Origin: Minutocellus sp. GHC0000111
Lineage: Eukaryota
Assembly (NCBI GenBank): GCA_977018835.1
Contig: OZ361258.1
Location: 992,001 to 1,056,000 of the forward strand
Length of the DNA: 64,000 bases
Direction of reading: 5' to 3'
Position 1 is the stretch's first letter. The number at the start of each line of letters is the position of its first letter. Below are positions 16,689 through 50,620 of the stretch, piece after piece. The notes under the pieces were generated by a model. That model saw only the letters and a list, made by a program, of their open reading frames with translations, was not told the DNA's origin and made no database searches. The translations under genes and the position numbers were made by a program.

Positions 16689-17585
16689 GCCGCGGATGTT
16701 CCGGCGTTTCGTTGGAAGTTTCCTTCTCATGGCGCGAGGGGCTGAATGCAGTCGCCTCGGCGCGTTTCGGTGGACGCGGTGGACTGAAGATGTGTCCCTT
16801 TGGAGTATCCATGAGCATGGAAGCTTCTTGAAGCGCCAGTCGGCAGAAGTTGCCCAGTCTATTTGTGGTAATTGCTTGGTGGTCGGTTGTTGACGGATGT
16901 GTTTTGATTTGCTTGCTTTGCCGCGTGTTTTTCAAGGTGGCGCGCAAACCGCCGTGTCGGAAAGTCCAAAGACCAAAAAACCGGGTCCCCGAAATTGCTG
17001 TCCCGGACCTCGAGGTCGCGGACAGCAGTTTCAGGGACCCGGTTTTCGGGTCTTTGGGCAAAATCTCATAAAAATCAGCACAAACGCACGCAGCAAGCAG
17101 CATTTGTTTGCTATCGTCCTGTCTTCAAGATGGCGGTGACGGCAGTGCCGACGGCATCCGCTTCACGCAAGGGATAAGCGTGGTATCTCCAGAACGGGTT
17201 GGTCCTTGACCTTGGGACCGACTCGGAGACATCGATTTCATCTTCCCATGCCAGCGTCTGGCCGATTCACCCCATCCATCGCCCCTCCCGACTTCTGCCA
17301 GTTTTTCCGATGACAACCGGTCACCTCCTCCACCTCCCGACCCCACCACCACCTCCCAAATGCATTGATTCAAGTAGCCATATGGTTTGAGCTCCGATAT
17401 CGGTCTCCATGGTCCCCATGATGGCGCATCTCATGCGGTCCGGGTGACCCCGCGCCAAAATCGAGCGGGCCAAAAAAATCATCACCCGCCCGGCGCGCCC
17501 GCCACTCAATGAAACCTTCCTCATTTCCAACCCACCCGACATACAAACTGTTGCTCTACTGCCACAAAACACTGCATCCAACACC

Positions 17586-19238
17586 ATGTTAATGCAAATG
17601 GCTGTTGCTGCTGCTGCCGCCACCGCAGCTGATGCGCCAGCATGTCGCCGCTCCCGTCGGTCCGGCAGCTCCATCCCATGCTTTGATTGTTTTGTCCATC
17701 GGAGCGGCACCATCGATGCCTCTACGATTCGTGGCAAGTCTCCTGGGATGATCCAGACCATAGCGAACCGGGCATGGGCGGGCCTCTCACTTCAGAAACA
17801 GCAGGATATTGTGGAGCAAGCCCGAGAGGAGGAGCTGTGCTGTCCGAGCCAGACCGGTCCTGATCCGGCACAAGATGTGCCGATTTCTCAAATTCAAATT
17901 GCTCGGCGCAATTCGTCATCCAATAACGCCGATGCCAGCCCTGAGCCGACGGTCGAGGACAATGCTGGCATCGCTGCTCGTCCTGGTGATGACAATGTCG
18001 AAGCTGGGGGCATCGCCGAGTCCATGGTGGTGGATGGAAGCGGCAACAGTGAAGAATCTGGCAATCCTGCCAGTGTCGGTGTTTCTGCTACCGGCACCGC
18101 CAATTCTGGTGGATCGACCGAGGAGAATTTGGATGTGCTGCTGGTTGAGGCCGAAGCGCAACACAAAGCTGCAGAGGAGGCTTTGAAAGGGCTAAGGGAC
18201 TCCTTGAAACGAGAAAAGCGGAAGGATGAAAAGGCCATGGCCGATGCCGAGAAGAAAAGGAACAAAATGAAGGATGAGAACGGCAATTTACCGAATGGAA
18301 AGAAGCGAGTTCTCCTCGTGCATTACGATGAGAAATGGTTCTGGGGTCTCGTCCTCCGAGCTTTTGCGAAGGCTTGCGAGGAAATCGGCGTGAAAAAGCG
18401 AGATTACGCGGCCTTTCACAGGAGCCACATCAACAAGGTCATGGCCATTGCATTTGTTGCCGCTGTCTTTGACGGTTCTCTTGAGAGTGGGTGCGAGGTT
18501 GTAAAACTGCCACTGGTACGAGCTCAAGCTCCTAAAATAGCGGAGCGAGCTCAGCACGAAGCAGCATCACAGCCTGATGGTTCAACACGGCACCCAAATA
18601 CCAACCCCGATGGGACACCAAAGGAACCTCTTCGCCGGAAAGGAGAGTCGTTTCTTGTTGATTGTTGCGTTACTGGATCGAACGAAGGCACCAAAACGGA
18701 TCCGAAATGCTCTTTGCTCCTCGTATTCAAGGAGACCATTTTCCCAGCGATTCTCAACCTTGTCGGTCCGGGCAAGCAATACGAAGATTGCCATGTTATT
18801 ATCCAGGGCGACCAGGCCGGGCCTCACGAGGACGGAGCCTTCACGCAATTTGTTACTAACTTCTGTGCTGAGCAAGGCTGGACGTGGCAGCCACAGGCAC
18901 CGCAGATGCCTCACGCCAACGTCCTTGACTTGAGCGTGTTCCCCGCGATGAGCCGGCGGCACTCGGAATGGGCACGAAAAATGGTAGGCACCTCCGTCAT
19001 TTCCACCGACCAGATCTGGGACACTGCCGAGGACGTTTACGATAGCATGCCTAACTGCAAAATTGCTTCGGCCTTCATTCAGTGCTGGAGGATAATGGGC
19101 CTGGTGATTAAGGCCGGTGGTAGCAATGAGTTTGTTGGAAGGTTGGGTGACGAAAACTTGCACACTGGAATTAGGATCGACTTCAACGAAACGGCCAAGG
19201 GGATGGAGCCCTCAGCTCGTCATCCTTCTAATAAATAG
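17586..19238 (+). CDS. Mariner-like DD38D transposase (unit 1)
   Basis: VHYDEKWFW, HINKVM, IIQGDQAGPH and QAPQMPHANVLDLSVF parallel the plant-type DD39D mariner motifs HIDEKWF, QQDNA..H and QPPNSPDLNVLDLGFF. 38 residues lie between Asp2 and Asp3. Confidence 0.9.
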   Translation: MLMQMAVAAAAATAADAPACRRSRRSGSSIPCFDCFVHRSGTIDASTIRGKSPGMIQTIANRAWAGLSLQKQQDIVEQAREEELCCPSQTGPDPAQDVPISQIQIARRNSSSNNADASPEPTVEDNAGIAARPGDDNVEAGGIAESMVVDGSGNSEESGNPASVGVSATGTANSGGSTEENLDVLLVEAEAQHKAAEEALKGLRDSLKREKRKDEKAMADAEKKRNKMKDENGNLPNGKKRVLLVHYDEKWFWGLVLRAFAKACEEIGVKKRDYAAFHRSHINKVMAIAFVAAVFDGSLESGCEVVKLPLVRAQAPKIAERAQHEAASQPDGSTRHPNTNPDGTPKEPLRRKGESFLVDCCVTGSNEGTKTDPKCSLLLVFKETIFPAILNLVGPGKQYEDCHVIIQGDQAGPHEDGAFTQFVTNFCAEQGWTWQPQAPQMPHANVLDLSVFPAMSRRHSEWARKMVGTSVISTDQIWDTAEDVYDSMPNCKIASAFIQCWRIMGLVIKAGGSNEFVGRLGDENLHTGIRIDFNETAKGMEPSARHPSNK

Positions 19239-19333
19239 ATAGTGTTAATGTCTTTACACATGTATTAAATAAATGTTACACGTCTACAAATTATTTATAG
19301 ATCTACATGTAAGATGCAGCAGCATTGGTTTGT

Positions 19334-20476
19334 TTATGTCACGGTGGGCTTCTTTGTTCTTCTATTTCTACCGGTGTTCTTTTTTGCCTCCTTGGCCTTC
19401 TTATGATCATTAGAAAGCCACACAGCGTGGAGGGACTGACGAATCTTTCCGCGCTTCACACCATATGCATCGGCAAGTTTGTTGTCAGTGAGGGCAGGGT
19501 GAGCAGTTGGTTGTTTACTCCCATCCTCATATCCCAACTTATATGCATCTAATGCAATCTTGTCAGTAGATAATGCAATAGAGAATTCTATTGTCTTGTT
19601 ATCATACAATCCGAGTTCTCTGCTTCTCCACCCTTTCGGGTAGGCACCACGACCCTCTCTTACTTGGCGATCGACTTCGATCATGCCTAGCACTGTGGTG
19701 ACCGCGACCTCGCTACCCCAACCAGGAACTTGTTTGAAGGGGAGGTAGACCCCTTTCTCTTTTCTTCTTGGTTCGGGCCTCTGACTACATGTGGGTGACT
19801 TGTAGTTCTTTATATCTTGTGGTAGTGGTGCTTCTCCGTACGTCAAAAAGCACACAAGCCTCCGATGTTCCTCAACCTCTCGTTCAATCTGTCGTTCGGT
19901 TGGTTCGGTTGGAGGCAAGGGCTCCAAGATGGTAGGGGATGACAATTGAAGGTTGCTGAACGACGGGCATGAGCGGCTTGGGGTAAGAGCATACTGAGTA
20001 TGAACTGACATTGGACTTGTTACCATGGGCGTGGCGGAGGGAAGGTCGAATGAGCTCACGGGCTTTCTCCTCTCGCCGCTTGGCTTTGCGTCGGCGGTTG
20101 CTATGCTCATCTCTGAGAATGAATCATCTTCATCAGAATGAGATGAAACGGTAGCGGTACCGCGAAAGTCGGCACGCAATATGTCATGATGCAAGTACTT
20201 CCTTGCTTGGGCTTGTTCGGCGGCGAAGCCATCCTCTTCGTTGTACTCGCGTCGATATTTCAACACACGAGGAGATGTGAGGTCTGACGATGCCGGTGGG
20301 ACCCCTTGGTTGTCCTCCTCGTCATCGTTGTCCTTGTTCTCTCGATGCCGCGGATGTTCCGGCGTTTCGTTGGAAGTTTCCTTCTCATGGCGCGAGGGGC
20401 TGAATGCAGTCGCCTCGGCGCGTTTCGGTGGACGCGGTGGACTGAAGATGTGTCCCTTTGGAGTATCCATGAGCAT
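19334..20476 (-). CDS. Transposon ORF2, 380 aa, unknown function (unit 1)
   Basis: First ATG inside the element (MLMDTPK...); open in all 9 units; basic C-terminus. The frame stays open across the TIR junction to an ATG at 20761. Confidence 0.65.
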   Translation of the reverse strand: MLMDTPKGHIFSPPRPPKRAEATAFSPSRHEKETSNETPEHPRHRENKDNDDEEDNQGVPPASSDLTSPRVLKYRREYNEEDGFAAEQAQARKYLHHDILRADFRGTATVSSHSDEDDSFSEMSIATADAKPSGERRKPVSSFDLPSATPMVTSPMSVHTQYALTPSRSCPSFSNLQLSSPTILEPLPPTEPTERQIEREVEEHRRLVCFLTYGEAPLPQDIKNYKSPTCSQRPEPRRKEKGVYLPFKQVPGWGSEVAVTTVLGMIEVDRQVREGRGAYPKGWRSRELGLYDNKTIEFSIALSTDKIALDAYKLGYEDGSKQPTAHPALTDNKLADAYGVKRGKIRQSLHAVWLSNDHKKAKEAKKNTGRNRRTKKPTVT

Positions 20477-20622
20477 GGAAGCTTCTTGAAGCGCCAGTCG
20501 GCAGAAGTTGCCCAGTCTATTTGTGGTAATTGCTTGGTGGTCGGTTGTTGACGGATGTGTTTTGATTTGCTTGCTTTGCCGCGTGTTTTTCAAGGTGCGC
20601 GCAAACCGCCGTGTCGGAAAGT

Positions 20623-20715
20623 CCAAAGACCCAAAAAACCGGGTCCCCGAAATTGCTGTCCCGGACCTCGAGGTCGCGGACAGCAGTTTCAGGGACCCGG
20701 TTTTCGGGTCTTTGG
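20623..20715. repeat. Abutting terminal inverted repeats forming a ~93-bp imperfect palindrome (representative junction)
   Basis: CCAAAGACCCAAAAAACCGGGTCCCCGAAATTGCTGTCCCGGACCT-CG-AGGTCGCGGACAGCAGTTTCAGGGACCCGGTTTTCGGGTCTTTGG. Confidence 0.95.
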
Positions 20716-21242
20716 GCAAAATCTCATAAAAATCAGCACAAACGCACGCAGCAAGCAGCATTTGTTTGCTATCGTCCTGTCTTCAAGATGGCGGTGACGG
20801 CAGTGCCGACGGCATCCGCTTCACGCAAGGGATAAGCGTGGTATCTCCAGAACGGGTTGGTCCTTGACCTTGGACCGACTCGGAGACATCGATTTCATCT
20901 TCCCATGCCAGCGTCTGGCCGATTCACCCCATCCATCGCCCCTCCCGACTTCTGCCAGTTTTTCCGATGACAACCGGTCACCTCCTCCACCTCCCGACCC
21001 CACCACCACCTCCCAAATGCATTGATTCAAGTAGCCATATGGTTTGAGCTCCGATATCGGTCTCCATGGTCCCCATGATGGCGCATCTCATGCGGTCCGG
21101 GTGACCCCGCGCCAAAATCGAGCGGGCCAAAAAAATCATCACCCGCCCGGCGCGCCCGCCACTCAATGAAACCTTCCTCATTTCCAACCCACCCGACATA
21201 CAAACTGTTGCTCTACTGCCACAAAACACTGCATCCAACACC

Positions 21243-22895
21243 ATGTTAATGCAAATGGCTGTTGCTGCTGCTGCCGCCACCGCAGCTGATGCGCCAGCAT
21301 GTCGCCGCTCCCGTCGGTCCGGCAGCTCCATCCCATGCTTTGATTGTTTTGTCCATCGGAGCGGCACCATCGATGCCTCTACGATTCGTGGCAAGTCTCC
21401 TGGGATGATCCAGACCATAGCGAACCGGGCATGGGCGGGCCTCTCACTTCAGAAACAGCAGGATATTGTGGAGCAAGCCCGAGAGGAGGAGCTGTGCTGT
21501 CCGAGCCAGACCGGTCCTGATCCGGCACAAGATGTGCCGATTTCTCAAATTCAAATTGCTCGGCGCAATTCGTCATCCAATAACGCCGATGCCAGCCCTG
21601 AGCCGACGGTCGAGGACAATGCTGGCATCGCTGCTCGTCCTGGTGATGACAATGTCGAAGCTGGGGGCATCGCCGAGTCCATGGTGGTGGATGGAAGCGG
21701 CAACAGTGAAGAATCTGGCAATCCTGCCAGTGTCGGTGTTTCTGCTACCGGCACCGCCAATTCTGGTGGATCGACCGAGGAGAATTTGGATGTGCTGCTG
21801 GTTGAGGCCGAAGCGCAACACAAAGCTGCAGAGGAGGCTTTGAAAGGGCTAAGGGACTCCTTGAAACGAGAAAAGCGGAAGGATGAAAAGGCCATGGCCG
21901 ATGCCGAGAAGAAAAGGAACAAAATGAAGGATGAGAACGGCAATTTACCGAATGGAAAGAAGCGAGTTCTCCTCGTGCATTACGATGAGAAATGGTTCTG
22001 GGGTCTCGTCCTCCGAGCTTTTGCGAAGGCTTGCGAGGAAATCGGCGTGAAAAAGCGAGATTACGCGGCCTTTCACAGGAGCCACATCAACAAGGTCATG
22101 GCCATTGCATTTGTTGCCGCTGTCTTTGACGGTTCTCTTGAGAGTGGGTGCGAGGTTGTAAAACTGCCACTGGTACGAGCTCAAGCTCCTAAAATAGCGG
22201 AGCGAGCTCAGCACGAAGCAGCATCACAGCCTGATGGTTCAACACGGCACCCAAATACCAACCCCGATGGGACACCAAAGGAACCTCTTCGCCGGAAAGG
22301 AGAGTCGTTTCTTGTTGATTGTTGCGTTACTGGATCGAACGAAGGCACCAAAACGGATCCGAAATGCTCTTTGCTCCTCGTATTCAAGGAGACCATTTTC
22401 CCAGCGATTCTCAACCTTGTCGGTCCGGGCAAGCAATACGAAGATTGCCATGTTATTATCCAGGGCGACCAGGCCGGGCCTCACGAGGACGGAGCCTTCA
22501 CGCAATTTGTTACTAACTTCTGTGCTGAGCAAGGCTGGACGTGGCAGCCACAGGCACCGCAGATGCCTCACGCCAACGTCCTTGACTTGAGCGTGTTCCC
22601 CGCGATGAGCCGGCGGCACTCGGAATGGGCACGAAAAATGGTAGGCACCTCCGTCATTTCCACCGACCAGATCTGGGACACTGCCGAGGACGTTTACGAT
22701 AGCATGCCTAACTGCAAAATTGCTTCGGCCTTCATTCAGTGCTGGAGGATAATGGGCCTGGTGATTAAGGCCGGTGGTAGCAATGAGTTTGTTGGAAGGT
22801 TGGGTGACGAAAACTTGCACACTGGAATTAGGATCGACTTCAACGAAACGGCCAAGGGGATGGAGCCCTCAGCTCGTCATCCTTCTAATAAATAG
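21243..22895 (+). CDS. DD38D transposase (unit 2)
   Basis: Protein identical to unit 1. Confidence 0.9.
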   Translation: MLMQMAVAAAAATAADAPACRRSRRSGSSIPCFDCFVHRSGTIDASTIRGKSPGMIQTIANRAWAGLSLQKQQDIVEQAREEELCCPSQTGPDPAQDVPISQIQIARRNSSSNNADASPEPTVEDNAGIAARPGDDNVEAGGIAESMVVDGSGNSEESGNPASVGVSATGTANSGGSTEENLDVLLVEAEAQHKAAEEALKGLRDSLKREKRKDEKAMADAEKKRNKMKDENGNLPNGKKRVLLVHYDEKWFWGLVLRAFAKACEEIGVKKRDYAAFHRSHINKVMAIAFVAAVFDGSLESGCEVVKLPLVRAQAPKIAERAQHEAASQPDGSTRHPNTNPDGTPKEPLRRKGESFLVDCCVTGSNEGTKTDPKCSLLLVFKETIFPAILNLVGPGKQYEDCHVIIQGDQAGPHEDGAFTQFVTNFCAEQGWTWQPQAPQMPHANVLDLSVFPAMSRRHSEWARKMVGTSVISTDQIWDTAEDVYDSMPNCKIASAFIQCWRIMGLVIKAGGSNEFVGRLGDENLHTGIRIDFNETAKGMEPSARHPSNK

Positions 22896-22990
22896 ATAGT
22901 GTTAATGTCTTTACACATGTATTAAATAAATGTTACACGTCTACAAATTATTTATAGATCTACATGTAAGATGCAGCAGCATTGGTTTGT

Positions 22991-24133
22991 TTATGTCACG
23001 GTGGGCTTCTTTGTTCTTCTATTTCTACCGGTGTTCTTTTTTGCCTCCTTGGCCTTCTTATGATCATTAGAAAGCCACACAGCGTGGAGGGACTGACGAA
23101 TCTTTCCGCGCTTCACACCATATGCATCGGCAAGTTTGTTGTCAGTGAGGGCAGGGTGAGCAGTTGGTTGTTTACTCCCATCCTCATATCCCAACTTATA
23201 TGCATCTAATGCAATCTTGTCAGTAGATAATGCAATAGAGAATTCTATTGTCTTGTTATCATACAATCCGAGTTCTCTGCTTCTCCACCCTTTCGGGTAG
23301 GCACCACGACCCTCTCTTACTTGGCGATCGACTTCGATCATGCCTAGCACTGTGGTGACCGCGACCTCGCTACCCCAACCAGGAACTTGTTTGAAGGGGA
23401 GGTAGACCCCTTTCTCTTTTCTTCTTGGTTCGGGCCTCTGACTACATGTGGGTGACTTGTAGTTCTTTATATCTTGTGGTAGTGGTGCTTCTCCGTACGT
23501 CAAAAAGCACACAAGCCTCCGATGTTCCTCAACCTCTCGTTCAATCTGTCGTTCGGTTGGTTCGGTTGGAGGCAAGGGCTCCAAGATGGTAGGGGATGAC
23601 AATTGAAGGTTGCTGAACGACGGGCATGAGCGGCTTGGGGTAAGAGCATACTGAGTATGAACTGACATTGGACTTGTTACCATGGGCGTGGCGGAGGGAA
23701 GGTCGAATGAGCTCACGGGCTTTCTCCTCTCGCCGCTTGGCTTTGCGTCGGCGGTTGCTATGCTCATCTCTGAGAATGAATCATCTTCATCAGAATGAGA
23801 TGAAACGGTAGCGGTACCGCGAAAGTCGGCACGCAATATGTCATGATGCAAGTACTTCCTTGCTTGGGCTTGTTCGGCGGCGAAGCCATCCTCTTCGTTG
23901 TACTCGCGTCGATATTTCAACACACGAGGAGATGTGAGGTCTGACGATGCCGGTGGGACCCCTTGGTTGTCCTCCTCGTCATCGTTGTCCTTGTTCTCTC
24001 GATGCCGCGGATGTTCCGGCGTTTCGTTGGAAGTTTCCTTCTCATGGCGCGAGGGGCTGAATGCAGTCGCCTCGGCGCGTTTCGGTGGACGCGGTGGACT
24101 GAAGATGTGTCCCTTTGGAGTATCCATGAGCAT
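22991..24133 (-). CDS. Transposon ORF2 (unit 2)
   Basis: Identical to unit 1. Confidence 0.65.
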   Translation of the reverse strand: MLMDTPKGHIFSPPRPPKRAEATAFSPSRHEKETSNETPEHPRHRENKDNDDEEDNQGVPPASSDLTSPRVLKYRREYNEEDGFAAEQAQARKYLHHDILRADFRGTATVSSHSDEDDSFSEMSIATADAKPSGERRKPVSSFDLPSATPMVTSPMSVHTQYALTPSRSCPSFSNLQLSSPTILEPLPPTEPTERQIEREVEEHRRLVCFLTYGEAPLPQDIKNYKSPTCSQRPEPRRKEKGVYLPFKQVPGWGSEVAVTTVLGMIEVDRQVREGRGAYPKGWRSRELGLYDNKTIEFSIALSTDKIALDAYKLGYEDGSKQPTAHPALTDNKLADAYGVKRGKIRQSLHAVWLSNDHKKAKEAKKNTGRNRRTKKPTVT

Positions 24134-24899
24134 GGAAGCTTCTTGAAGCGCCAGTCGGCAGAAGTTGCCCAGTCTATTTGTGGTAATTGCTTGGTGGTCG
24201 GTTGTTGACGGATGTGTTTTGATTTGCTTGCTTTGCCGCGTGTTTTTCAAGGTGCGCGCAAACCGCCGTGTCGGAAAGTCCAAAGACCCAAAAAACCGGG
24301 TCCCCGAAATTGCTGTCCCGGACCTCGAGGTCGCGGACAGCAGTTTCAGGGACCCGGTTTTCGGGTCTTTGGGCAAAATCTCATAAAAATCAGCACAAAC
24401 GCACGCAGCAAGCAGCATTTGTTTGCTATCGTCCTGTCTTCAAGATGGCGGTGACGGCAGTGCCGACGGCATCCGCTTCACGCAAGGGATAAGCGTGGTA
24501 TCTCCAGAACGGGTTGGTCCTTGACCTTGGACCGACTCGGAGACATCGATTTCATCTTCCCATGCCAGCGTCTGGCCGATTCACCCCATCCATCGCCCCT
24601 CCCGACTTCTGCCAGTTTTTCCGATGACAACCGGTCACCTCCTCCACCTCCCGACCCCACCACCACCTCCCAAATGCATTGATTCAAGTAGCCATATGGT
24701 TTGAGCTCCGATATCGGTCTCCATGGTCCCCATGATGGCGCATCTCATGCGGTCCGGGTGACCCCGCGCCAAAATCGAGCGGGCCAAAAAAATCATCACC
24801 CGCCCGGCGCGCCCGCCACTCAATGAAACCTTCCTCATTTCCAACCCACCCGACATACAAACTGTTGCTCTACTGCCACAAAACACTGCATCCAACACC

Positions 24900-26552
24900 A
24901 TGTTAATGCAAATGGCTGTTGCTGCTGCTGCCGCCACCGCAGCTGATGCGCCAGCATGTCGCCGCTCCCGTCGGTCCGGCAGCTCCATCCCATGCTTTGA
25001 TTGTTTTGTCCATCGGAGCGGCACCATCGATGCCTCTACGATTCGTGGCAAGTCTCCTGGGATGATCCAGACCATAGCGAACCGGGCATGGGCGGGCCTC
25101 TCACTTCAGAAACAGCAGGATATTGTGGAGCAAGCCCGAGAGGAGGAGCTGTGCTGTCCGAGCCAGACCGGTCCTGATCCGGCACAAGATGTGCCGATTT
25201 CTCAAATTCAAATTGCTCGGCGCAATTCGTCATCCAATAACGCCGATGCCAGCCCTGAGCCGACGGTCGAGGACAATGCTGGCATCGCTGCTCGTCCTGG
25301 TGATGACAATGTCGAAGCTGGGGGCATCGCCGAGTCCATGGTGGTGGATGGAAGCGGCAACAGTGAAGAATCTGGCAATCCTGCCAGTGTCGGTGTTTCT
25401 GCTACCGGCACCGCCAATTCTGGTGGATCGACCGAGGAGAATTTGGATGTGCTGCTGGTTGAGGCCGAAGCGCAACACAAAGCTGCAGAGGAGGCTTTGA
25501 AAGGGCTAAGGGACTCCTTGAAACGAGAAAAGCGGAAGGATGAAAAGGCCATGGCCGATGCCGAGAAGAAAAGGAACAAAATGAAGGATGAGAACGGCAA
25601 TTTACCGAATGGAAAGAAGCGAGTTCTCCTCGTGCATTACGATGAGAAATGGTTCTGGGGTCTCGTCCTCCGAGCTTTTGCGAAGGCTTGCGAGGAAATC
25701 GGCGTGAAAAAGCGAGATTACGCGGCCTTTCACAGGAGCCACATCAACAAGGTCATGGCCATTGCATTTGTTGCCGCTGTCTTTGACGGTTCTCTTGAGA
25801 GTGGGTGCGAGGTTGTAAAACTGCCACTGGTACGAGCTCAAGCTCCTAAAATAGCGGAGCGAGCTCAGCACGAAGCAGCATCACAGCCTGATGGTTCAAC
25901 ACGGCACCCAAATACCAACCCCGATGGGACACCAAAGGAACCTCTTCGCCGGAAAGGAGAGTCGTTTCTTGTTGATTGTTGCGTTACTGGATCGAACGAA
26001 GGCACCAAAACGGATCCGAAATGCTCTTTGCTCCTCGTATTCAAGGAGACCATTTTCCCAGCGATTCTCAACCTTGTCGGTCCGGGCAAGCAATACGAAG
26101 ATTGCCATGTTATTATCCAGGGCGACCAGGCCGGGCCTCACGAGGACGGAGCCTTCACGCAATTTGTTACTAACTTCTGTGCTGAGCAAGGCTGGACGTG
26201 GCAGCCACAGGCACCGCAGATGCCTCACGCCAACGTCCTTGACTTGAGCGTGTTCCCCGCGATGAGCCGGCGGCACTCGGAATGGGCACGAAAAATGGTA
26301 GGCACCTCCGTCATTTCCACCGACCAGATCTGGGACACTGCCGAGGACGTTTACGATAGCATGCCTAACTGCAAAATTGCTTCGGCCTTCATTCAGTGCT
26401 GGAGGATAATGGGCCTGGTGATTAAGGCCGGTGGTAGCAATGAGTTTGTTGGAAGGTTGGGTGACGAAAACTTGCACACTGGAATTAGGATCGACTTCAA
26501 CGAAACGGCCAAGGGGATGGAGCCCTCAGCTCGTCATCCTTCTAATAAATAG
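24900..26552 (+). CDS. DD38D transposase (unit 3)
   Basis: Protein identical to unit 1. Confidence 0.9.
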   Translation: MLMQMAVAAAAATAADAPACRRSRRSGSSIPCFDCFVHRSGTIDASTIRGKSPGMIQTIANRAWAGLSLQKQQDIVEQAREEELCCPSQTGPDPAQDVPISQIQIARRNSSSNNADASPEPTVEDNAGIAARPGDDNVEAGGIAESMVVDGSGNSEESGNPASVGVSATGTANSGGSTEENLDVLLVEAEAQHKAAEEALKGLRDSLKREKRKDEKAMADAEKKRNKMKDENGNLPNGKKRVLLVHYDEKWFWGLVLRAFAKACEEIGVKKRDYAAFHRSHINKVMAIAFVAAVFDGSLESGCEVVKLPLVRAQAPKIAERAQHEAASQPDGSTRHPNTNPDGTPKEPLRRKGESFLVDCCVTGSNEGTKTDPKCSLLLVFKETIFPAILNLVGPGKQYEDCHVIIQGDQAGPHEDGAFTQFVTNFCAEQGWTWQPQAPQMPHANVLDLSVFPAMSRRHSEWARKMVGTSVISTDQIWDTAEDVYDSMPNCKIASAFIQCWRIMGLVIKAGGSNEFVGRLGDENLHTGIRIDFNETAKGMEPSARHPSNK

Positions 26553-26647
26553 ATAGTGTTAATGTCTTTACACATGTATTAAATAAATGTTACACGTCTA
26601 CAAATTATTTATAGATCTACATGTAAGATGCAGCAGCATTGGTTTGT

Positions 26648-30204: not shown

Positions 30205-30299
30205 ATAGTGTTAATGTCTTTACACATGTATTAAATAAATGTTACACGTCTACAAATTATTTATAGATCTACATGTAAGATGCAGCAGCATTGGTTTGT

Positions 30300-33861: not shown

Positions 33862-33956
33862 ATAGTGTTAATGTCTTTACACATGTATTAAATAAATGTT
33901 ACACGTCTACAAATTATTTATAGATCTACATGTAAGATGCAGCAGCATTGGTTTGT

Positions 33957-37518: not shown

Positions 37519-37613
37519 ATAGTGTTAATGTCTTTACACATGTATTAAATAAATGTTACACGTCTACAAATTATTTATAGATCTACATGTAAGATGCAGC
37601 AGCATTGGTTTGT

Positions 37614-41175: not shown

Positions 41176-41270
41176 ATAGTGTTAATGTCTTTACACATGT
41201 ATTAAATAAATGTTACACGTCTACAAATTATTTATAGATCTACATGTAAGATGCAGCAGCATTGGTTTGT

Positions 41271-42413
41271 TTATGTCACGGTGGGCTTCTTTGTTCTTCT
41301 ATTTCTACCGGTGTTCTTTTTTGCCTCCTTGGCCTTCTTATGATCATTAGAAAGCCACACAGCGTGGAGGGACTGACGAATCTTTCCGCGCTTCACACCA
41401 TGTGCATCGGCAAGTTTGTTGTCAGTGAGGGCAGGGTGAGCAGTTGGTTGTTTACTCCCATCCTCATATCCCAACTTACATGCATCTAATGCAATCTTGT
41501 CAGTAGATAATGCAATAGAGAATTCTATTGTCTTGTTATCATACAATCCGAGTTCTCTGCTTCTCCACCCTTTCGGGTAGGCACCACGACCCTCTCTTAC
41601 TTGGCGATCGACTTCGATCATGCCTAGCACTGTGGTGACCGCGACCTCGCTACCCCAACCAGGAACTTGTTTGAAGGGGAGGTAGACCCCTTTCTCTTTT
41701 CTTCTTGGTTCGGGCCTCTGACTACATGTGGGTGACTTGTAGTTCTTTATGTCTTGTGGTAGTGGTGCTTCTCCGTACGTCAAAAAGCACACAAGCCTCC
41801 GATGTTCCTCAACCTCTCGTTCAATCTGTCGTTCGGTTGGTTCGGTTGGAGGCAAGGGCTCCAAGATGGTAGGGGATGACAATTGAAGGTTGCTGAACGA
41901 CGGGCATGAGCGGCTTGGGGTAAGAGCATACTGAGTATGAACTGACATTGGACTTGTTACCATGGGCGTGGCGGAGGGAAGGTCGAATGAGCTCACGGGC
42001 TTTCTCCTCTCGCCGCTTGGCTTTGCGTCGGCGGTTGCTATGCTCATCTCTGAGAATGAATCATCTTCATCAGAATGAGATGAAACGGTAGCGGTACCGC
42101 GAAAGTCGGCACGCAATATGTCATGATGCAAGTACTTCCTTGCTTGGGCTTGTTCGGCGGCGAAGCCATCCTCTTCGTTGTACTCGCGTCGATATTTCAA
42201 CACACGAGGAGATGTGAGGTCTGACGATGCCGGTGGGACCCCTTGGTTGTCCTCCTCGTCATCGTTGTCCTTGTTCTCTCGATGCCGCGGATGTTCCGGC
42301 GTTTCGTTGGAAGTTTCCTTCTCATGGCGCGAGGGGCTGAATGCAGTCGCCTCGGCGCGTTTCGGTGGACGCGGTGGACTGAAGATGTGCCCCTTTGGAG
42401 TATCCATGAGCAT
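41271..42413 (-). CDS. Transposon ORF2 (unit 7)
   Basis: As unit 4. Confidence 0.65.
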   Translation of the reverse strand: MLMDTPKGHIFSPPRPPKRAEATAFSPSRHEKETSNETPEHPRHRENKDNDDEEDNQGVPPASSDLTSPRVLKYRREYNEEDGFAAEQAQARKYLHHDILRADFRGTATVSSHSDEDDSFSEMSIATADAKPSGERRKPVSSFDLPSATPMVTSPMSVHTQYALTPSRSCPSFSNLQLSSPTILEPLPPTEPTERQIEREVEEHRRLVCFLTYGEAPLPQDIKNYKSPTCSQRPEPRRKEKGVYLPFKQVPGWGSEVAVTTVLGMIEVDRQVREGRGAYPKGWRSRELGLYDNKTIEFSIALSTDKIALDACKLGYEDGSKQPTAHPALTDNKLADAHGVKRGKIRQSLHAVWLSNDHKKAKEAKKNTGRNRRTKKPTVT

Positions 42414-43179
42414 GGAAGCTTCTTGAAGCGCCAGTCGGCAGAAGTTGCCCAGTCTATTTGTGGTAATTGCTTGGAGGTCGGTTGTTGACGGATGTGTTTT
42501 GATTTGCTTGCTTTGCCGCGTGTTTTTCAAGGTGCGCGCAAACCGCCGTGTCGGAAAGTCCAAAGACCCAAAAAACCGGGTCCCCGAAATTGCTGTCCCG
42601 GACCTCGAGGTCGCGGACAGCAGTTTCAGGGACCCGGTTTTCGGGTCTTTGGGCAAAATCTCATAAAAATCAGCACAAACGCACGCAGCAAGCAGCATTT
42701 GTTTGCTATCGTCCTGTCTTCAAGATGGCGGTGACGGCAGTGCCGACGGCATCCGCTTCACGCAAGGGATAAGCGTGGTATCTCCAGAACGGGTTGGTCC
42801 TTGACCTTGGACCGACTCGGAGACATCGATTTCATCTTCCCATGCCAGCGTCTGGCCGATTCACCCCATCCATCGCCCCTCCCGACTTCTGCCAGTTTTT
42901 CCGATGACAACCGGTCACCTCCTCCACCTCCCGACCCCACCACCACCTCCCAAATGCATTGATTCAAGTAGCCATATGGTTTGAGCTCCGATATCGGTCT
43001 CCATGGTCCCCATGATGGCGCATCTCATGCGGTCCGGGTGACCCCGCGCCAAAATCGAGCGGGCCAAAAAAATCATCACCCGCCCGGCGCGCCCGCCACT
43101 CAATGAAACCTTCCTCATTTCCAACCCACCCGACATACAAACTGTTGCTCTACTGCCACAAAACACTGCATCCAACACC

Positions 43180-44832
43180 ATGTTAATGCAAATGGCTGTT
43201 GCTGCTGCTGCCGCCACCGCAGCTGATGCGCCAGCATGTCGCCGCTCCCGTCGGTCCGGCAGCTCCATCCCATGCTTTGATTGTTTTGTCCATCGGAGCG
43301 GCACCATCGATGCCTCTACGATTCGTGGCAAGTCTCCTGGGATGATCCAGACCATAGCGAACCGGGCATGGGCGGGCCTCTCACTTCAGAAACAGCAGGA
43401 TATTGTGGAGCAAGCCCGAGAGGAGGAGCTGTGCTGTCCGAGCCAGACCGGTCCTGATCCGGCACAAGATGTGCCGATTTCTCAAATTCAAATTGCTCGG
43501 CGCAATTCGTCATCCAATAACGCCGATGCCAGCCCTGAGCCGACGGTCGAGGACAATGCTGGCATCGCTGCTCGTCCTGGTGATGACAATGTCGAAGCTG
43601 GGGGCATCGCCGAGTCCATGGTGGTGGATGGAAGCGGCAACAGTGAAGAATCTGGCAATCCTGCCAGTGTCGGTGTTTCTGCTACCGGCACCGCCAATTC
43701 TGGTGGATCGACCGAGGAGAATTTGGATGTGCTGCTGGTTGAGGCCGAAGCGCAACACAAAGCTGCAGAGGAGGCTTTGAAAGGGCTAAGGGACTCCTTG
43801 AAACGAGAAAAGCGGAAGGATGAAAAGGCCGTGGCCGATGCCGAGAAGAAAAGGAACAAAATGAAGGATGAGAACGGCAATTTACCGAATGGAAAGAAGC
43901 GAGTTCTCCTCGTGCATTACGATGAGAAATGGTTCTGGGTTCTCGTCCTCCGAGCTTTTGCGAAGGCTTGCGAGGAAATCGGCGTGAAAAAGCGAGATTA
44001 CGCGGCCTTTCACAGGAGCCACATCAACAAGGTCATGGCCATTGCATTTGTTGCCGCTGTCTTTGACGGTTCTCTTGAGAGTGGGTGCGAGGTTGTAAAA
44101 CTGCCACTGGTACGAGCTCAAGCTCCTAAAATAGCGGAGCGAGCTCAGCACGAAGCAGCATCACAGCCTGATGGTTCAACACGGCACCCAAATACCAACC
44201 CCGATGGGACACCAAAGGAACCTCTTCGCCGGAAAGGAGAGTCGTTTCTTGTTGATTGTTGCGTTACTGGATCGAACGAAGGCACCAAAACGGATCCGAA
44301 ATGCTCTTTGCTCCTCGTATTCAAGGAGACCATTTTCCCAGCGATTCTCAACCTTGTCGGTCCGGGCAAGCAATACGAAGATTGCCATGTTATTATCCAG
44401 GGCGACCAGGCCGGGCCTCACGAGGACGGAGCCTTCACGCAATTTGTTACTAACTTCTGTGCTGAGCAAGGCTGGACGTGGCAGCCACAGGCACCGCAGA
44501 TGCCTCACGCCAACGTCCTTGACTTGAGCGTGTTCCCCGCGATGAGCCGGCGGCACTCGGAATGGGCACGAAAAATGGTAGGCACCTCCGTCATTTCCAC
44601 CGACCAGATCTGGGACACTGCCGAGGACGTTTACGATAGCATGCCTAACTGCAAAATTGCTTCGGCCTTCATTCAGTACTGGAGGATAATGGGCCTGGTG
44701 ATTAAGGCCGGTGGTAGCAATGAGTTTGTTGGAAGGTTGGGTGACGAAAACTTGCACACTGGAATTAGGATCGACTTCAACGAAACGGCCAAGGGGATGG
44801 AGCCCTCAGCTCGTCATCCTTCTAATAAATAG
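43180..44832 (+). CDS. DD38D transposase (unit 8; M->V, G->V, QYW)
   Basis: Variants at 43831, 43940 and 44678. Confidence 0.9.
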   Translation: MLMQMAVAAAAATAADAPACRRSRRSGSSIPCFDCFVHRSGTIDASTIRGKSPGMIQTIANRAWAGLSLQKQQDIVEQAREEELCCPSQTGPDPAQDVPISQIQIARRNSSSNNADASPEPTVEDNAGIAARPGDDNVEAGGIAESMVVDGSGNSEESGNPASVGVSATGTANSGGSTEENLDVLLVEAEAQHKAAEEALKGLRDSLKREKRKDEKAVADAEKKRNKMKDENGNLPNGKKRVLLVHYDEKWFWVLVLRAFAKACEEIGVKKRDYAAFHRSHINKVMAIAFVAAVFDGSLESGCEVVKLPLVRAQAPKIAERAQHEAASQPDGSTRHPNTNPDGTPKEPLRRKGESFLVDCCVTGSNEGTKTDPKCSLLLVFKETIFPAILNLVGPGKQYEDCHVIIQGDQAGPHEDGAFTQFVTNFCAEQGWTWQPQAPQMPHANVLDLSVFPAMSRRHSEWARKMVGTSVISTDQIWDTAEDVYDSMPNCKIASAFIQYWRIMGLVIKAGGSNEFVGRLGDENLHTGIRIDFNETAKGMEPSARHPSNK

Positions 44833-44927
44833 ATAGTGTTAATGTCTTTACACATGTATTAAATAAATGTTACACGTCTACAAATTATTTATAGATCTAC
44901 ATGTAAGATGCAGCAGCACTGGTTTGT

Positions 44928-46070
44928 TCATGTCACGGTGGGCTTCTTTGTTCTTCTATTTCTACCGGTGTTCTTTTTTGCCTCCTTGGCCTTCTTATGA
45001 TCATTAGAAAGCCACACAGCGTGGAGGGACTGACGAATCTTTCCGCGCTTCACACCATATGCATCGGCAAGTTTGTTGTCAGTGAGGGCAGGGTGAGCAG
45101 TTGGTTGTTTACTCCCATCCTCATATCCCAACTTATATGCATCTAATGCAATCTTGTCAGTAGATAATGCAATAGAGAATTCTATTGTCTTGTTATCATA
45201 CAATCCGAGTTCTCTGCTTCTCCACCCTTTCGGGTAGGCACCACGACCCTCTCTTACTTGGCGATCGACTTCGATCATGCCTAGCACTGTGGTGACCGCG
45301 ACCTCGCTACCCCAACCAGGAACTTGTTTGAAGGGGAGGTAGACCCCTTTCTCTTTTCTTCTTGGTTCGGGCCTCTGACTACATGTGGGTGACTTGTAGT
45401 TCTTTATGTCTTGTGGTAGTGGTGCTTCTCCGTACGTCAAAAAGCACACAAGCCTCCGATGTTCCTCAACCTCTCGTTCAATCTGTCGTTCGGTTGGTTC
45501 GGTTGGAGGCAAGGGCTCCAAGATGGTAGGGGATGACAATTGAAGGTTGCTGAACGACGGGCATGAGCGGCTTGGGGTAAGAGCATACTGAGTATGAACT
45601 GACATTGGACTTGTTACCATGGGCGTGGCGGAGGGAAGGTCGAATGAGCTCACGGGCTTTCTCCTCTCGCCGCTTGGCTTTGCGTCGGCGGTTGCTATGC
45701 TCATCTCTGAGAATGAATCATCTTCATCAGAATGAGATGAAACGGTAGCGGTACCGCGAAAGTCGGCACGCAATATGTCATGATGCAAGTACTTCCTTGC
45801 TTGGGCTTGTTCGGCGGCGAAGCCATCCTCTTCGTTGTACTCGCGTCGATATTTCAACACACGAGGAGATGTGAGGTCTGACGATGCCGGTGGGACCCCT
45901 TGGTTGTCCTCCTCGTCATCGTTGTCCTTGTTCTCTCGATGCCGCGGATGTTCCGGCGTTTCGTTGGAAGTTTCCTTCTCATGGCGCGAGGGGCTGAATG
46001 CAGTCGCCTCGGCGCGTTTCGGTGGACGCGGTGGACTGAAGATGTGCCCCTTTGGAGTATCCATGAGCAT
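44928..46070 (-). CDS. Transposon ORF2 (unit 8; stop TAA->TGA)
   Basis: Retains both Tyr; T->C at 44929 converts the stop to TGA. Confidence 0.65.
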   Translation of the reverse strand: MLMDTPKGHIFSPPRPPKRAEATAFSPSRHEKETSNETPEHPRHRENKDNDDEEDNQGVPPASSDLTSPRVLKYRREYNEEDGFAAEQAQARKYLHHDILRADFRGTATVSSHSDEDDSFSEMSIATADAKPSGERRKPVSSFDLPSATPMVTSPMSVHTQYALTPSRSCPSFSNLQLSSPTILEPLPPTEPTERQIEREVEEHRRLVCFLTYGEAPLPQDIKNYKSPTCSQRPEPRRKEKGVYLPFKQVPGWGSEVAVTTVLGMIEVDRQVREGRGAYPKGWRSRELGLYDNKTIEFSIALSTDKIALDAYKLGYEDGSKQPTAHPALTDNKLADAYGVKRGKIRQSLHAVWLSNDHKKAKEAKKNTGRNRRTKKPTVT

Positions 46071-46836
46071 GGAAGCTTCTTGAAGCGCCAGTCGGCAGAA
46101 GTTGCCCAGTCTATTTGTGGTAATTGCTTGGAGGTCGGTTGTTGACGGATGTGTTTTGATTTGCTTGCTTTGCCGCGTGTTTTTCAAGGTGCGCGCAAAC
46201 CGCCGTGTCGGAAAGTCCAAAGACCCAAAAAACCGGGTCCCCGAAATTGCTGTCCCGGACCTCGAGGTCGCGGACAGCAGTTTCAGGGACCCGGTTTTCG
46301 GGTCTTTGGGCAAAATCTCATAAAAATCAGCACAAACGCACGCAGCAAGCAGCATTTGTTTGCTATCGTCCTGTCTTCAAGATGGCGGTGACGGCAGTGC
46401 CGACGGCATCCGCTTCACGCAAGGGATAAGCGTGGTATCTCCAGAACGGGTTGGTCCTTGACCTTGGACCGACTCGGAGACATCGATTTCATCTTCCCAT
46501 GCCAGCGTCTGGCCGATTCACCCCATCCATCGCCCCTCCCGACTTCTGCCAGTTTTTCCGATGACAACCGGTCACCTCCTCCACCTCCCGACCCCACCAC
46601 CACCTCCCAAATGCATTGATTCAAGTAGCCATATGGTTTGAGCTCCGATATCGGTCTCCATGGTCCCCATGATGGCGCATCTCATGCGGTCCGGGTGACC
46701 CCGCGCCAAAATCGAGCGGGCCAAAAAAATCATCACCCGCCCGGCGCGCCCGCCACTCAATGAAACCTTCCTCATTTCCAACCCACCCGACATACAAACT
46801 GTTGCTCTACTGCCACAAAACACTGCATCCAACACC

Positions 46837-48489
46837 ATGTTAATGCAAATGGCTGTTGCTGCTGCTGCCGCCACCGCAGCTGATGCGCCAGCATGTCGCC
46901 GCTCCCGTCGGTCCGGCAGCTCCATCCCATGCTTTGATTGTTTTGTCCATCGGAGCGGCACCATCGATGCCTCTACGATTCGTGGCAAGTCTCCTGGGAT
47001 GATCCAGACCATAGCGAACCGGGCATGGGCGGGCCTCTCACTTCAGAAACAGCAGGATATTGTGGAGCAAGCCCGAGAGGAGGAGCTGTGCTGTCCGAGC
47101 CAGACCGGTCCTGATCCGGCACAAGATGTGCCGATTTCTCAAATTCAAATTGCTCGGCGCAATTCGTCATCCAATAACGCCGATGCCAGCCCTGAGCCGA
47201 CGGTCGAGGACAATGCTGGCATCGCTGCTCGTCCTGGTGATGACAATGTTGAAGCTGGGGGCATCGCCGAGTCCATGGTGGTGGATGGAAGCGGCAACAG
47301 TGAAGAATCTGGCAATCCTGCCAGTGTCGGTGTTTCTGCTACCGGCACCGCCAATTCTGGTGGATCGACCGAGGAGAATTTGGATGTGCTGCTGGTTGAG
47401 GCCGAAGCGCAACACAAAGCTGCAGAGGAGGCTTTGAAAGGGCTAAGGGACTCCTTGAAACGAGAAAAGCGGAAGGATGAAAAGGCCATGGCCGATGCCG
47501 AGAAGAAAAGGAACAAAATGAAGGATGAGAACGGCAATTTACCGAATGGAAAGAAGCGAGTTCTCCTCGTGCATTGCGATGAGAAATGGTTCTGGGGTCT
47601 CGTCCTCCGAGCTTTTGCGAAGGCTTGCGAGGAAATCGGCGTGAAAAAGCGAGATTACGCGGCCTTTCACAGGAGCCACATCAACAAGGTCATGGCCATT
47701 GCATTTGTTGCCGCTGTCTTTGACGGTTCTCTTGAGAGTGGGTGCGAGGTTGTAAAACTGCCACTGGTACGAGCTCAAGCTCCTAAAATAGCGGAGCGAG
47801 CTCAGCACGAAGCAGCATCACAGCCTGATGGTTCAACACGGCACCCAAATACCAACCCCGATGGGACACCAAAGGAACCTCTTCGCCGGAAAGGAGAGTC
47901 GTTTCTTGTTGATTGTTGCGTTACTGGATCGAACGAAGGCACCAAAACGGATCCGAAATGCTCTTTGCTCCTCGTATTCAAGGAGACCATTTTCCCAGCG
48001 ATTCTCAACCTTGTCGGTCCGGGCAAGCAATACGAAGATTGCCATGTTATTATCCAGGGCGACCAGGCCGGGCCTCACGAGGACGGAGCCTTCACGCAAT
48101 TTGTTACTAACTTCTGTGCTGAGCAAGGCTGGACGTGGCAGCCACAGGCACCGCAGATGCCTCACGCCAACGTCCTTGACTTGAGCGTGTTCCCCGCGAT
48201 GAGCCGGCGGCACTCGGAATGGGCACGAAAAATGGTAGGCACCTCCGTCATTTCCACCGACCAGATCTGGGACACTGCCGAGGACGTTTACGATAGCATG
48301 CCTAACTGCAAAATTGCTTCGGCCTTCATTCAGTACTGGAGGATAATGGGCCTGGTGATTAAGGCCGGTGGTAGCAATGAGTTTGTTGGAAGGTTGGGTG
48401 ACGAAAACTTGCACACTGGAATTAGGATCGACTTCAACGAAACGGCCAAGGGGATGGAGCCCTCAGCTCGTCATCCTTCTAATAAATAG
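46837..48489 (+). CDS. DD38D transposase (unit 9; HCDEKWF, QYW)
   Basis: Variants at 47576 and 48335. Confidence 0.9.
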   Translation: MLMQMAVAAAAATAADAPACRRSRRSGSSIPCFDCFVHRSGTIDASTIRGKSPGMIQTIANRAWAGLSLQKQQDIVEQAREEELCCPSQTGPDPAQDVPISQIQIARRNSSSNNADASPEPTVEDNAGIAARPGDDNVEAGGIAESMVVDGSGNSEESGNPASVGVSATGTANSGGSTEENLDVLLVEAEAQHKAAEEALKGLRDSLKREKRKDEKAMADAEKKRNKMKDENGNLPNGKKRVLLVHCDEKWFWGLVLRAFAKACEEIGVKKRDYAAFHRSHINKVMAIAFVAAVFDGSLESGCEVVKLPLVRAQAPKIAERAQHEAASQPDGSTRHPNTNPDGTPKEPLRRKGESFLVDCCVTGSNEGTKTDPKCSLLLVFKETIFPAILNLVGPGKQYEDCHVIIQGDQAGPHEDGAFTQFVTNFCAEQGWTWQPQAPQMPHANVLDLSVFPAMSRRHSEWARKMVGTSVISTDQIWDTAEDVYDSMPNCKIASAFIQYWRIMGLVIKAGGSNEFVGRLGDENLHTGIRIDFNETAKGMEPSARHPSNK

Positions 48490-48584
48490 ATAGTGTTAAT
48501 GTCTTTACACATGTATTAAATAAATGTTACACGTCTACAAATTATTTATAGATCTACATGTAAGATGCAGCAGCATTGGTTTGT

Positions 48585-49727
48585 TTATGTCACGGTGGGC
48601 TTCTTTGTTCTTCTATTTCTACCGGTGTTCTTTTTTGCCTCCTTGGCCTTCTTATGATCATTAGAAAGCCACACAGCGTGGAGGGACTGACGAATCTTTC
48701 CGCGCTTCACACCATGTGCATCGGCAAGTTTGTTGTCAGTGAGGGCAGGGTGAGCAGTTGGTTGTTTACTCCCATCCTCATATCCCAACTTACATGCATC
48801 TAATGCAATCTTGTCAGTAGATAATGCAATAGAGAATTCTATTGTCTTGTTATCATACAATCCGAGTTCTCTGCTTCTCCACCCTTTCGGGTAGGCACCA
48901 CGACCCTCTCTTACTTGGCGATCGACTTCGATCATGCCTAGCACTGTGGTGACCGCGACCTCGCTACCCCAACCAGGAACTTGTTTGAAGGGGAGGTAGA
49001 CCCCTTTCTCTTTTCTTCTTGGTTCGGGCCTCTGACTACATGTGGGTGACTTGTAGTTCTTTATGTCTTGTGGTAGTGGTGCTTCTCCGTACGTCAAAAA
49101 GCACACAAGCCTCCGATGTTCCTCAACCTCTCGTTCAATCTGTCGTTCGGTTGGTTCGGTTGGAGGCAAGGGCTCCAAGATGGTAGGGGATGACAATTGA
49201 AGGTTGCTGAACGACGGGCATGAGCGGCTTGGGGTAAGAGCATACTGAGTATGAACTGACATTGGACTTGTTACCATGGGCGTGGCGGAGGGAAGGTCGA
49301 ATGAGCTCACGGGCTTTCTCCTCTCGCCGCTTGGCTTTGCGTCGGCGGTTGCTATGCTCATCTCTGAGAATGAATCATCTTCATCAGAATGAGATGAAAC
49401 GGTAGCGGTACCGCGAAAGTCGGCACGCAATATGTCATGATGCAAGTACTTCCTTGCTTGGGCTTGTTCGGCGGCGAAGCCATCCTCTTCGTTGTACTCG
49501 CGTCGATATTTCAACACACGAGGAGATGTGAGGTCTGACGATGCCGGTGGGACCCCTTGGTTGTCCTCCTCGTCATCGTTGTCCTTGTTCTCTCGATGCC
49601 GCGGATGTTCCGGCGTTTCGTTGGAAGTTTCCTTCTCATGGCGCGAGGGGCTGAATGCAGTCGCCTCGGCGCGTTTCGGTGGACGCGGTGGACTGAAGAT
49701 GTGTCCCTTTGGAGTATCCATGAGCAT
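48585..49727 (-). CDS. Transposon ORF2 (unit 9)
   Basis: As unit 4; in frame with the upstream host ORF (48585-50426). Confidence 0.65.
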   Translation of the reverse strand: MLMDTPKGHIFSPPRPPKRAEATAFSPSRHEKETSNETPEHPRHRENKDNDDEEDNQGVPPASSDLTSPRVLKYRREYNEEDGFAAEQAQARKYLHHDILRADFRGTATVSSHSDEDDSFSEMSIATADAKPSGERRKPVSSFDLPSATPMVTSPMSVHTQYALTPSRSCPSFSNLQLSSPTILEPLPPTEPTERQIEREVEEHRRLVCFLTYGEAPLPQDIKNYKSPTCSQRPEPRRKEKGVYLPFKQVPGWGSEVAVTTVLGMIEVDRQVREGRGAYPKGWRSRELGLYDNKTIEFSIALSTDKIALDACKLGYEDGSKQPTAHPALTDNKLADAHGVKRGKIRQSLHAVWLSNDHKKAKEAKKNTGRNRRTKKPTVT

Positions 49728-49920
49728 GGAAGCTTCTTGAAGCGCCAGTCGGCAGAAGTTGCCCAGTCTATTTGTGGTAATTGCTTGGAGGTCGTTGTTG
49801 ACGGATGTGTTTTGATTTGCTTGCTTTGCCGCGTGTTTTTCAAGGTGCGCGCAAACCGCCGTGTCGGAAAGTCCAAAGACCCAAAAAACCGGGTCCCCAA
49901 AAATGCTGTCCCGGACCTCG

Positions 49921-50620
49921 TAATTCCAACCCTCCTGATCCCCGAAACTAATAACTTCCGTATCTTCTTCTCCAATATCATGGATACTGTCACCGCCACC
50001 AGTAGAAACGCCAGACACAAAGTCAGGCTGAAGAATGGCCACGAACAATGGCAGGGCACAGATGAGAGCCCTCTTGGGAAAGAAGTATGCATGTATGGGT
50101 GTGCGCTGACGAATGACGGGCTGCTGTGGCTTGCCAGCAGGACGCAAAACGACCGTACTTGGAGTTCCTTTCGACTTGGTCGATCTGTCCTGGGCTTGAC
50201 CCACGAACTTGGCGGCGACGATGCAAATGATAATGATAAGCGTTGTACGCCACAGGAAAGACTGTTCGTCGTCGACGTCGTCGTCTGCTCCAAAATCAGG
50301 CAAAGTCAGAAACGATGCTACTTTGGTACTTGCGGCATTTACCATGGTGGAACAAGCTGCTTCAGGAAGAGAACAGGCGCGAGTCGGGCAACCACGAGTT
50401 GGACCATCACCGCTGCCACCGCCCACGACGAGGGTAGCACAAAAGGGGGAGAGACGTGTTCGTCGAGATGAAAGGGACCAGGAGGAGCTGGAATGGAGGC
50501 GGCCATCTGGCCGCCGCTAGCAGCAGCAGCCGCCGCGGCCAGAAGAAGGCCAAGCACCGCTGCTACCGCCGCCGAGGCAAGGGTGTTGCTGCGGAAGGGC
50601 ATGTCTATCGATCGGTTCAA
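49921..50620 (-). pseudogene. 5' portion of a host gene (secreted/membrane-like) interrupted by the array
   Basis: ORF from 50426 with two hydrophobic stretches runs into the TIR at ...QEGWNY; the TA target is part of the Tyr codon. A signal-peptide-like ORF at 50620-50339 lies upstream in another frame. Confidence 0.5.

Follow-up and report, generated by a model that had tools for sequence, protein, structure and literature searches.

Head-to-tail copies of a putative DD38D Tc1/mariner-type transposon joined through a shared CG in Minutocellus sp.

Introduction

How can a cut-and-paste transposon come to lie in a head-to-tail array whose neighboring copies share a single terminal dinucleotide? 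This question is raised by a 64,000-nucleotide stretch of DNA (hereafter the window) from Minutocellus sp. GHC0000111 (GenBank assembly GCA_977018835.1, contig OZ361258.1, positions 992,001 to 1,056,000), which contains at least ten head-to-tail copies, with a period of ~3,657 bp, of what we identify from conserved motifs and a predicted fold as a DD38D Tc1/mariner-type transposon. An initial annotation of the window read the joints between the copies as the signature of cohesive-end circles and rolling-circle amplification. Here we report that the array with its shared-CG joints is a real feature, that a cohesive-end join is likely and that rolling-circle amplification is possible.

Mariner-like elements occur in the diatom Amphora, and Tc1 circles are known from C. 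elegans. Excision of Tc1/mariner elements leaves 3′ overhangs of 2–3 nt, which are repaired by end joining (PMC6943129, PMC7827188). In Drosophila melanogaster, whole Tc1/mariner elements lie head to tail in the Bari1 clusters, with no TA between them and with joints 2 nt short (PMC8834629, PMC5932611). Both a rolling circle and a dimer followed by deletion and unequal exchange have been proposed as the origin of Bari1, and the matter is unsettled (PMC8834629, PMC5932611); a 2022 review describes the Bari1 organization as lacking a comparable described example, with its origin unresolved (PMC8834629).

Results

Neighboring copies overlap by exactly one CG

All nine internal joints of the array read GGACCT-CG-AGGTC. 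Indeed, GACCTCGAGGTC occurs nine times in the window, TACGAGGTC does not occur in it, and a CTCGAG (XhoI) site is present in every joint; the shared CG begins at the eight unit starts listed in Table 1 and at 46263. With overlaps of 1–19 nucleotides tested, the right end can be laid over the left end only at length 2 (CG). The initial annotation had described the joints as GACCT-CG-AGGTC with a 2-bp CG overlap, no TA and an XhoI site, and this description is confirmed at 9/9 joints. The nine full units (U1–U9) are 3,654–3,660 bp long counting both CGs and share 99.6–99.9% identity with U9. The array had been taken to start at 16960; a tenth unit (U0) contributes its tail from 16689 on, which places the array's beginning at the scaffold gap. 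Tandem Repeats Finder, with a period limit of 500, is blind to the array.

Table 1. Coordinates of the array and of associated features in the window
Feature	Position	Strand	Remarks
Host ClpB/Hsp101-type gene	14392..16488	+	truncated by the gap; placed next to the array by scaffolding
Scaffold gap of 200 N	16489..16688		hides the array left end and any further units
U0, 3′ tail of a tenth unit, 324 bp	16689..17012	+	substitution alleles same as U1–U2
U1–U8, head to tail	17011..46264	+	starts 17011, 20669, 24326, 27983, 31635, 35292, 38949, 42606
U9, outermost right copy, 3,658 bp	46263..49920	+
Shared CG of the last joint	46263..46264		center of a near-palindrome of ~96 bp, −41.5 kcal/mol as DNA; other eight joints alike
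Left TIR of U9, ~47 bp	46263..46309	+	starts CGAGGTC
ORF1, 596 aa stop to stop	46699..48489	+	shortened transposase; D, D(38)D triad intact; no HTH region
In-frame deletion joint, GGA microhomology	47523..47525	+	from loose ends and comparison with P0006
ORF2, 380 aa	48585..49727	−	no known family
Right TIR of U9, ~48 bp	49873..49920	−	two substitutions private to U9
TA target dinucleotide	49921..49922		at the sole outer end in view; X1, X2 and X4 have element-flank contigs
TIR stands for terminal inverted repeat, ORF for open reading frame and HTH for helix-turn-helix.

Dispersed copies and relatives end in CG flanked by TA

The outermost right end of the array reads GGACCTCG followed by TA at 49920/49921 (CCTCG/TA, the slash marking the element boundary). 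Among 24 public sequencing runs listed, 20, from 8 studies, contain all or part of the stretch; contigs of four (X1, X2, X4 and X15) were compared, leaving out run X20, which holds a small share, and the runs with zero share. In these contigs, the consensus of loose ends before 46263 ends in TA (at least four contigs in X2 and at least three in X4), and those behind the CG have TA as their first letters (at least three in X2 and at least one in X15). Furthermore, 15 of the 163 proteins fetched read through the right end, 14 of which fit a TA flank (12 distinct flanks; four show TA outright, as TAC-GAG, and ten show A/CG, which is compatible with it), and one, P0068, reads a joint. No TA-spaced joint was found within the window or among these 15 proteins. 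Complete TIR pairs with TA/CGA at both ends are present in 7/70 related metagenome loci (L001, L005, L007, L008, L016, L019 and L024), a count that leaves out the TA-bounded pairs of L021, L049, L058 and L069; in L001, the closest related locus, the TIR is nearly the same as that of the array unit. The TIRs are imperfect, ~48 bp long and 85–87% alike, as in IS630-Tc1-mariner elements.

Together, these observations uphold the CG termini with TA flanks put forward in the initial annotation, and a check for different termini in dispersed copies found TA/CG ends, the same as those of the array. Dispersed copies and relatives thus have TA at either end, as in a TA target-site duplication, and of the array the right end alone is visible. 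The family has also spread through ordinary TA insertions. Relative to the TA/CG…CG/TA ends of dispersed copies and relatives, each joint lacks the TA and one CG, as the annotation held.

Outside the window, the CG joint recurs in P0068, a protein with 4–5 differences in 233 residues from each of the window's units. In X15, record 15 ends exactly at 49920, and record 9, which continues into the left end, opens 30 letters upstream of the CG's end, presumably where a k=31 junction contig would begin. The junction patterns had no matches in genome_contigs and viral_contigs, collections unsuited to a eukaryotic element, and in viral_contigs a relative was encoded by 0/119 candidate stretches. The L005 palindrome, the sole pass of a junction screen in the 70 loci, was rejected because it is internal and not a terminus. 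Separately, the element of L016 lies in a perfect 270-bp inverted repeat (1–270 and 2857–3126) that reaches beyond the TA, which may be an assembly fold-back or an insertion into a palindrome.

The unit is a shortened member of an abundant transposon family

The spacing between the second and third D residues is 38 in 40/40 proteins that carry both motifs (60 examined), in place of the 39 residues of PlantMar/DD39D. A predicted model of P0005, a close copy, has a mean pLDDT (predicted local distance difference test) of 87, and its top Foldseek matches are Mos1, SETMAR and SB (E 1.7e-8 to 4e-4), from which the RNase H-fold DDD/E domain of IS630-Tc1-mariner transposases is predicted. For the catalytic domain there was no Pfam match in ORF1 or in family members, and PDB sequence searches gave just a weak Tc3 match (E 0.6). 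PF01498, the Tc3-type HTH, was found in 36/49 family members at E≤0.1, so the N-terminal HTH is a property of the family; full-length family transposases are ~745–930 aa long, and a Nitzschia inconspicua transposase, at 42%, is the only homologue to carry an organism name, in line with a probable diatom host. The Tc1/mariner identity proposed in the initial annotation therefore gains support from the Mos1-like fold, the HTH of the family and the DDD triad.

A high-mobility-group (HMG) box stands at the N-terminus of 2/49 aligned members, including P0044 (PF00505, E 2e-14). For ORF1, the idea of an N-terminal HMG box was considered and found unsupported (E 1.9 against P0044).

Compared with the full-length copy P0006, the array unit is without 429 residues (~1,287 bp), the HTH included. 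It thus falls short of the complete transposase of an autonomous element and, being without the DNA-binding region, would need transposase in trans. X2, X4 and X15 contain full-length sequence at the site of the deletion; of the fetched proteins, 36 fit the full-length pattern (a few are more distant relatives) and 15 the deleted form. ORF1 of U4 bears a 5-bp frameshifting deletion. The loss of the DNA-binding domain from the unit by deletion, and the family's numerous dispersed copies with TA flanks, had escaped the initial annotation.

The family is abundant and dispersed, with clusters of 150, 35, 35, 74, 22 and 69 members and at least 44 different contigs among the 90 family members listed. 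Single-contig depth over that of the flank gives ratios of 163–270 in X2 and X4, which are rough and give no copy count. In X1, the element depth relative to the flank contig (5.8) is far above that of X2 and X4; summed depths are unreliable, and this excess may be an artefact, mixed strains or true copy-number variation. Nine RNA runs (X7–X13, X16 and X17; 3 studies) contain 57–64% of the words of the stretch.

ORF2 is probably cargo, since it is absent from all 70 related loci. It has no Pfam match and one distant homologue cluster, P0069 (42%, 7 members), which itself had no Atlas match; the 16 matches to ORF2 comprise, besides element copies, just P0069 and the short fragment P0169. The idea of a Tec-like recombinase found no support. 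The ORF2 frame is open across the joint into the next unit, reaching 482 aa stop to stop in U8. At the outer end, ORF2 and the right flank are fused across the TA into a 586-aa frame (48585–50345, minus strand); a search of longer proteins for homologues of the 142-aa flank part found none, and this part may be a host gene that was interrupted or may have arisen by chance.

Units share a founder haplotype and are mosaic

The nine units differ by 22 events, of which 13 are singletons and 9 are shared. The four-gamete test is failed by 12/36 informative site pairs, and neighboring units differ by 5.1 events on average, fewer than the 7.3 found over all pairs (p=0.006); between U2 and U3 there is no difference, and U1 is one base away. 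These counts speak against the clonal multimer implied by the initial annotation. Since the units are mosaic and neighbors are more alike, unequal exchange and conversion are favored, and the pattern fits growth of the array by both processes. Alleles common to all nine units differ from the bulk of family copies and point to one founding copy; array-type alleles are also found on at least four ENA contigs (P0104, P0110, P0115 and P0126).

Element copies carry a signature of TA-erasing mutation

Within the array, 8/15 transitions exchange TA and CA/TG (background 0.198, p=0.004), as do 26/32 transitions between U9 and the run contigs, a count over non-independent sites. TA is the state of the outgroup L001 at all five TA-type sites that can be aligned, and different copies carry TA, CA and TG at three sites. 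Among protein copies (P0001–P0171, leaving out six distant relatives), TA has changed to TG/CA at 26/97 possible sites, compared with 35/817 for other AT-to-GC changes. The observed/expected ratio of TA is 0.46 in the unit versus 0.56–0.59 in the flanks. From these patterns, polarized by L001, we infer TA→CA/TG hypermutation on both strands of the element copies. CpG decay is ruled out as its source, because the outgroup and bulk copies have TA. The hypermutation is no explanation for the joint, from which TA is missing rather than mutated; it could erode the TA flanks that cleavage may need.

Genomic surroundings

Two similar neighboring genes at 52591–57633 have a low-complexity N-terminus and a hydrophobic segment, with a C-terminus that we take to be metallophosphoesterase-like, and are possibly a local duplication. 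The host gene at 9192–13381 (minus strand) is presumably a Rad5-like SNF2/RING helicase, and that at 3564–4985 (minus strand) presumably resembles Hsp70/BiP.

Discussion

On balance, and with moderate confidence, we attribute the CG joint to ligation of a transposase-cut right end to a cut left end, with the dimer then grown by unequal exchange. Full-length transposase acting in trans would have cut the element ends; the terminal CG would have made the cut ends cohesive, and host end joining would have sealed right end to left end without the TA. A 2-nt overhang of the terminal CG would be self-complementary and a 3-nt overhang would anneal via the same CG, so right-to-left joining would give the joint sequence in either case. 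A circle joint that shares the overhang was expected, and partly observed, for Sleeping Beauty (PMC6943129). The dimer may have been born at an occupied TA site, through joining of the opposite ends of two sister chromatids, or alternatively through recombination of a self-ligated circle into a resident copy. The units would then have been multiplied and shuffled by unequal exchange and gene conversion, and the joints, being without flanking TA, would be poor cleavage substrates, letting the array persist.

The initial annotation had proposed ligation of a CG-3′ overhang. The joint does fit ligation of CG-ended cuts, but it does not fix a 2-nt overhang, because the same sequence would result from a 3-nt TCG overhang that annealed via CG and was filled in, or from joining at 2-bp microhomology. 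Nor are the letters a signature of a circle or of rolling-circle copying: circle capture and sister-chromatid joining yield identical letters, as does re-cutting or slippage of a TA-spaced dimer.

Several points weigh against ligation followed by unequal exchange. The array left end lies inside the gap, so that TA at both outer ends is unconfirmed. The contig of P0068 may be the same locus in another assembly, since P0126, which lies on a contig of equal length, shows no differences from U8/U9 over 282 residues. In X15, record 9 has just 28 letters left of the joint, below the 31-letter bridging rule, and 4/7 differences in its piece are unplaced. No joints were found in the 70 related metagenome loci, though these are mostly short contigs. 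No circle, empty site or footprint is among the observed data. Furthermore, mosaicism and likeness of neighbors could come from long-read assembly across near-identical units, and the same mosaic pattern could come from exchange after a rolling-circle birth.

We regard as unlikely a route in which a self-ligated CG circle was copied by a rolling circle and the concatemer inserted via its outer ends. A monomer circle would contain just such a joint, a founder haplotype is common to all units, with U2 and U3 identical and U1 one base off, and array-type alleles lie on at least the four ENA contigs named above; the route has been proposed for Bari1 too. The units are nonetheless mosaic rather than star-like, neither ORF has a Pfam match and hence no replication protein is evident, and the circles are inferred only, since contigs cannot reveal them. 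Sleeping Beauty circles did not transpose (PMC6943129) and Sleeping Beauty cleavage requires a flanking TA (PMC5224488), so that insertion of a circle or concatemer by transposase, as the initial annotation had it, is disfavored. Hermes circles, on the other hand, are able to re-integrate (PMC2803484), which keeps the circle-insertion route open and counts against the ligation reading as well.

Two insertions into the same TA, with the four central letters of the palindrome lost through slippage between the CGs or re-cutting of the inner ends and with unequal exchange thereafter, seem to us quite improbable. Double insertion is a common source of tandem transposons in Drosophila, joint deletions were found in 24/36 hobo dimers (PMC5932611), and the joint region here is a strong predicted hairpin. 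Against this, all nine units share many alleles that are absent from bulk copies, which argues for one founder and makes two donors unlikely unless later homogenised; no TA-spaced joint is present in the window or in the 15 read-through proteins, and the letters lost match the cut geometry exactly. A reading in which the joint is real and assembly created part of the array, with circles or arrays of other loci or haplotypes stitched beside the gap, is very unlikely: the array does end in a scaffold gap that also cuts ClpB, the family is very high-copy by the depth ratios above, and the evidence here comes from contigs, not raw reads, but the units differ by 22 events with neighbors more alike, the element-to-flank boundary is found in contigs of X1, X2 and X4, and the joint recurs in P0068.

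Among known systems, the closest likeness is to Bari1, the precedent for joints 2 nt short that the initial annotation had cited and that PMC8834629 bears out. Here, too, whole elements follow one another with an identical minus-two joint and no target-site duplication. The Bari1 ends are, per the printed junction, of the CAG/CTG type, not self-complementary, and one TIR is shortened, whereas here the two missing letters are shared and both TIRs read complete; Bari1 arrays reportedly finish with a partial element, whereas the visible end here is clean with TA (PMC8834629, PMC5932611). The array unit, furthermore, carries probable cargo and derives from a longer element by internal deletion.

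In Sleeping Beauty excision circles, the ends are likewise religated via 3′ overhangs with terminal bases shared (PMC6943129). Those circles carry a 3-nt joint with a central mismatch, are extrachromosomal, come mainly from mutant transposases and are non-transposing (PMC6943129), whereas the joint here is a perfect CG, multiplied in an assembled array. Compared with rolling-circle concatemers, the units share a founder yet are mosaic, and circles are invisible in contigs. Double-insertion dimers of the P element, hobo and R1 resemble the array as dimers that expand by unequal exchange, and differ in that the target-site duplication is kept or the joint deletions are variable (PMC5932611). Other tandem arrays, in the portions of PMC2872659 and PMC9659126 covered, are without a CG joint.

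The DDD triad, TA target, short TIRs, Mos1-like fold and, in full-length members, Tc3-type HTH are features common to PlantMar/DD39D and mariner DD34D (PMC7325037). In contrast, the family described here is predicted to be DD38D, with transposases of ~745–930 aa and an HMG box in 2/49 members, the comparison being by features. DD38D has no occurrences in the portion of PMC7325037 covered, no literature-wide search for the term having been made. None of the titles and abstracts listed concerns a CG-joined mariner array or this family, in a survey with thin coverage of subscription papers and without supplements.

The TA-erasing mutation has a parallel in Bigelowiella natans, where TpA changes to TpG/CpA on both strands of integrated viral DNA in mutation-accumulation lines (bioRxiv 10.64898/2026.01.13.699255). 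The likeness lies in the same change on both strands of foreign-type DNA; there, the change is measured in viral DNA, whereas here it is deduced from copies of a DNA transposon and is partial. The element copies add a polarized case of such TA-erasing hypermutation, here in a young DNA transposon.

A broader idea, which we hold to be doubtful, is that the ends of CG-terminated DD38D elements are cohesive and that circles and CG-joined multimers recurrently form, replicate and re-seed the genome, as a replicative side route for a cut-and-paste element. If so, the absence of TA from the joints would shield the array from further cutting, and the minus-two joint of Bari1 would be the same ligation with mismatched overhangs.

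The array is a second natural case of the minus-two joint arithmetic of Bari1, in an unrelated host and family. Here, self-complementary ends would explain the minus-two joint, and this favors ligation of cut ends rather than a random deletion at a later stage. Such ligation would be a way for cut-and-paste elements to seed satellite-like arrays.

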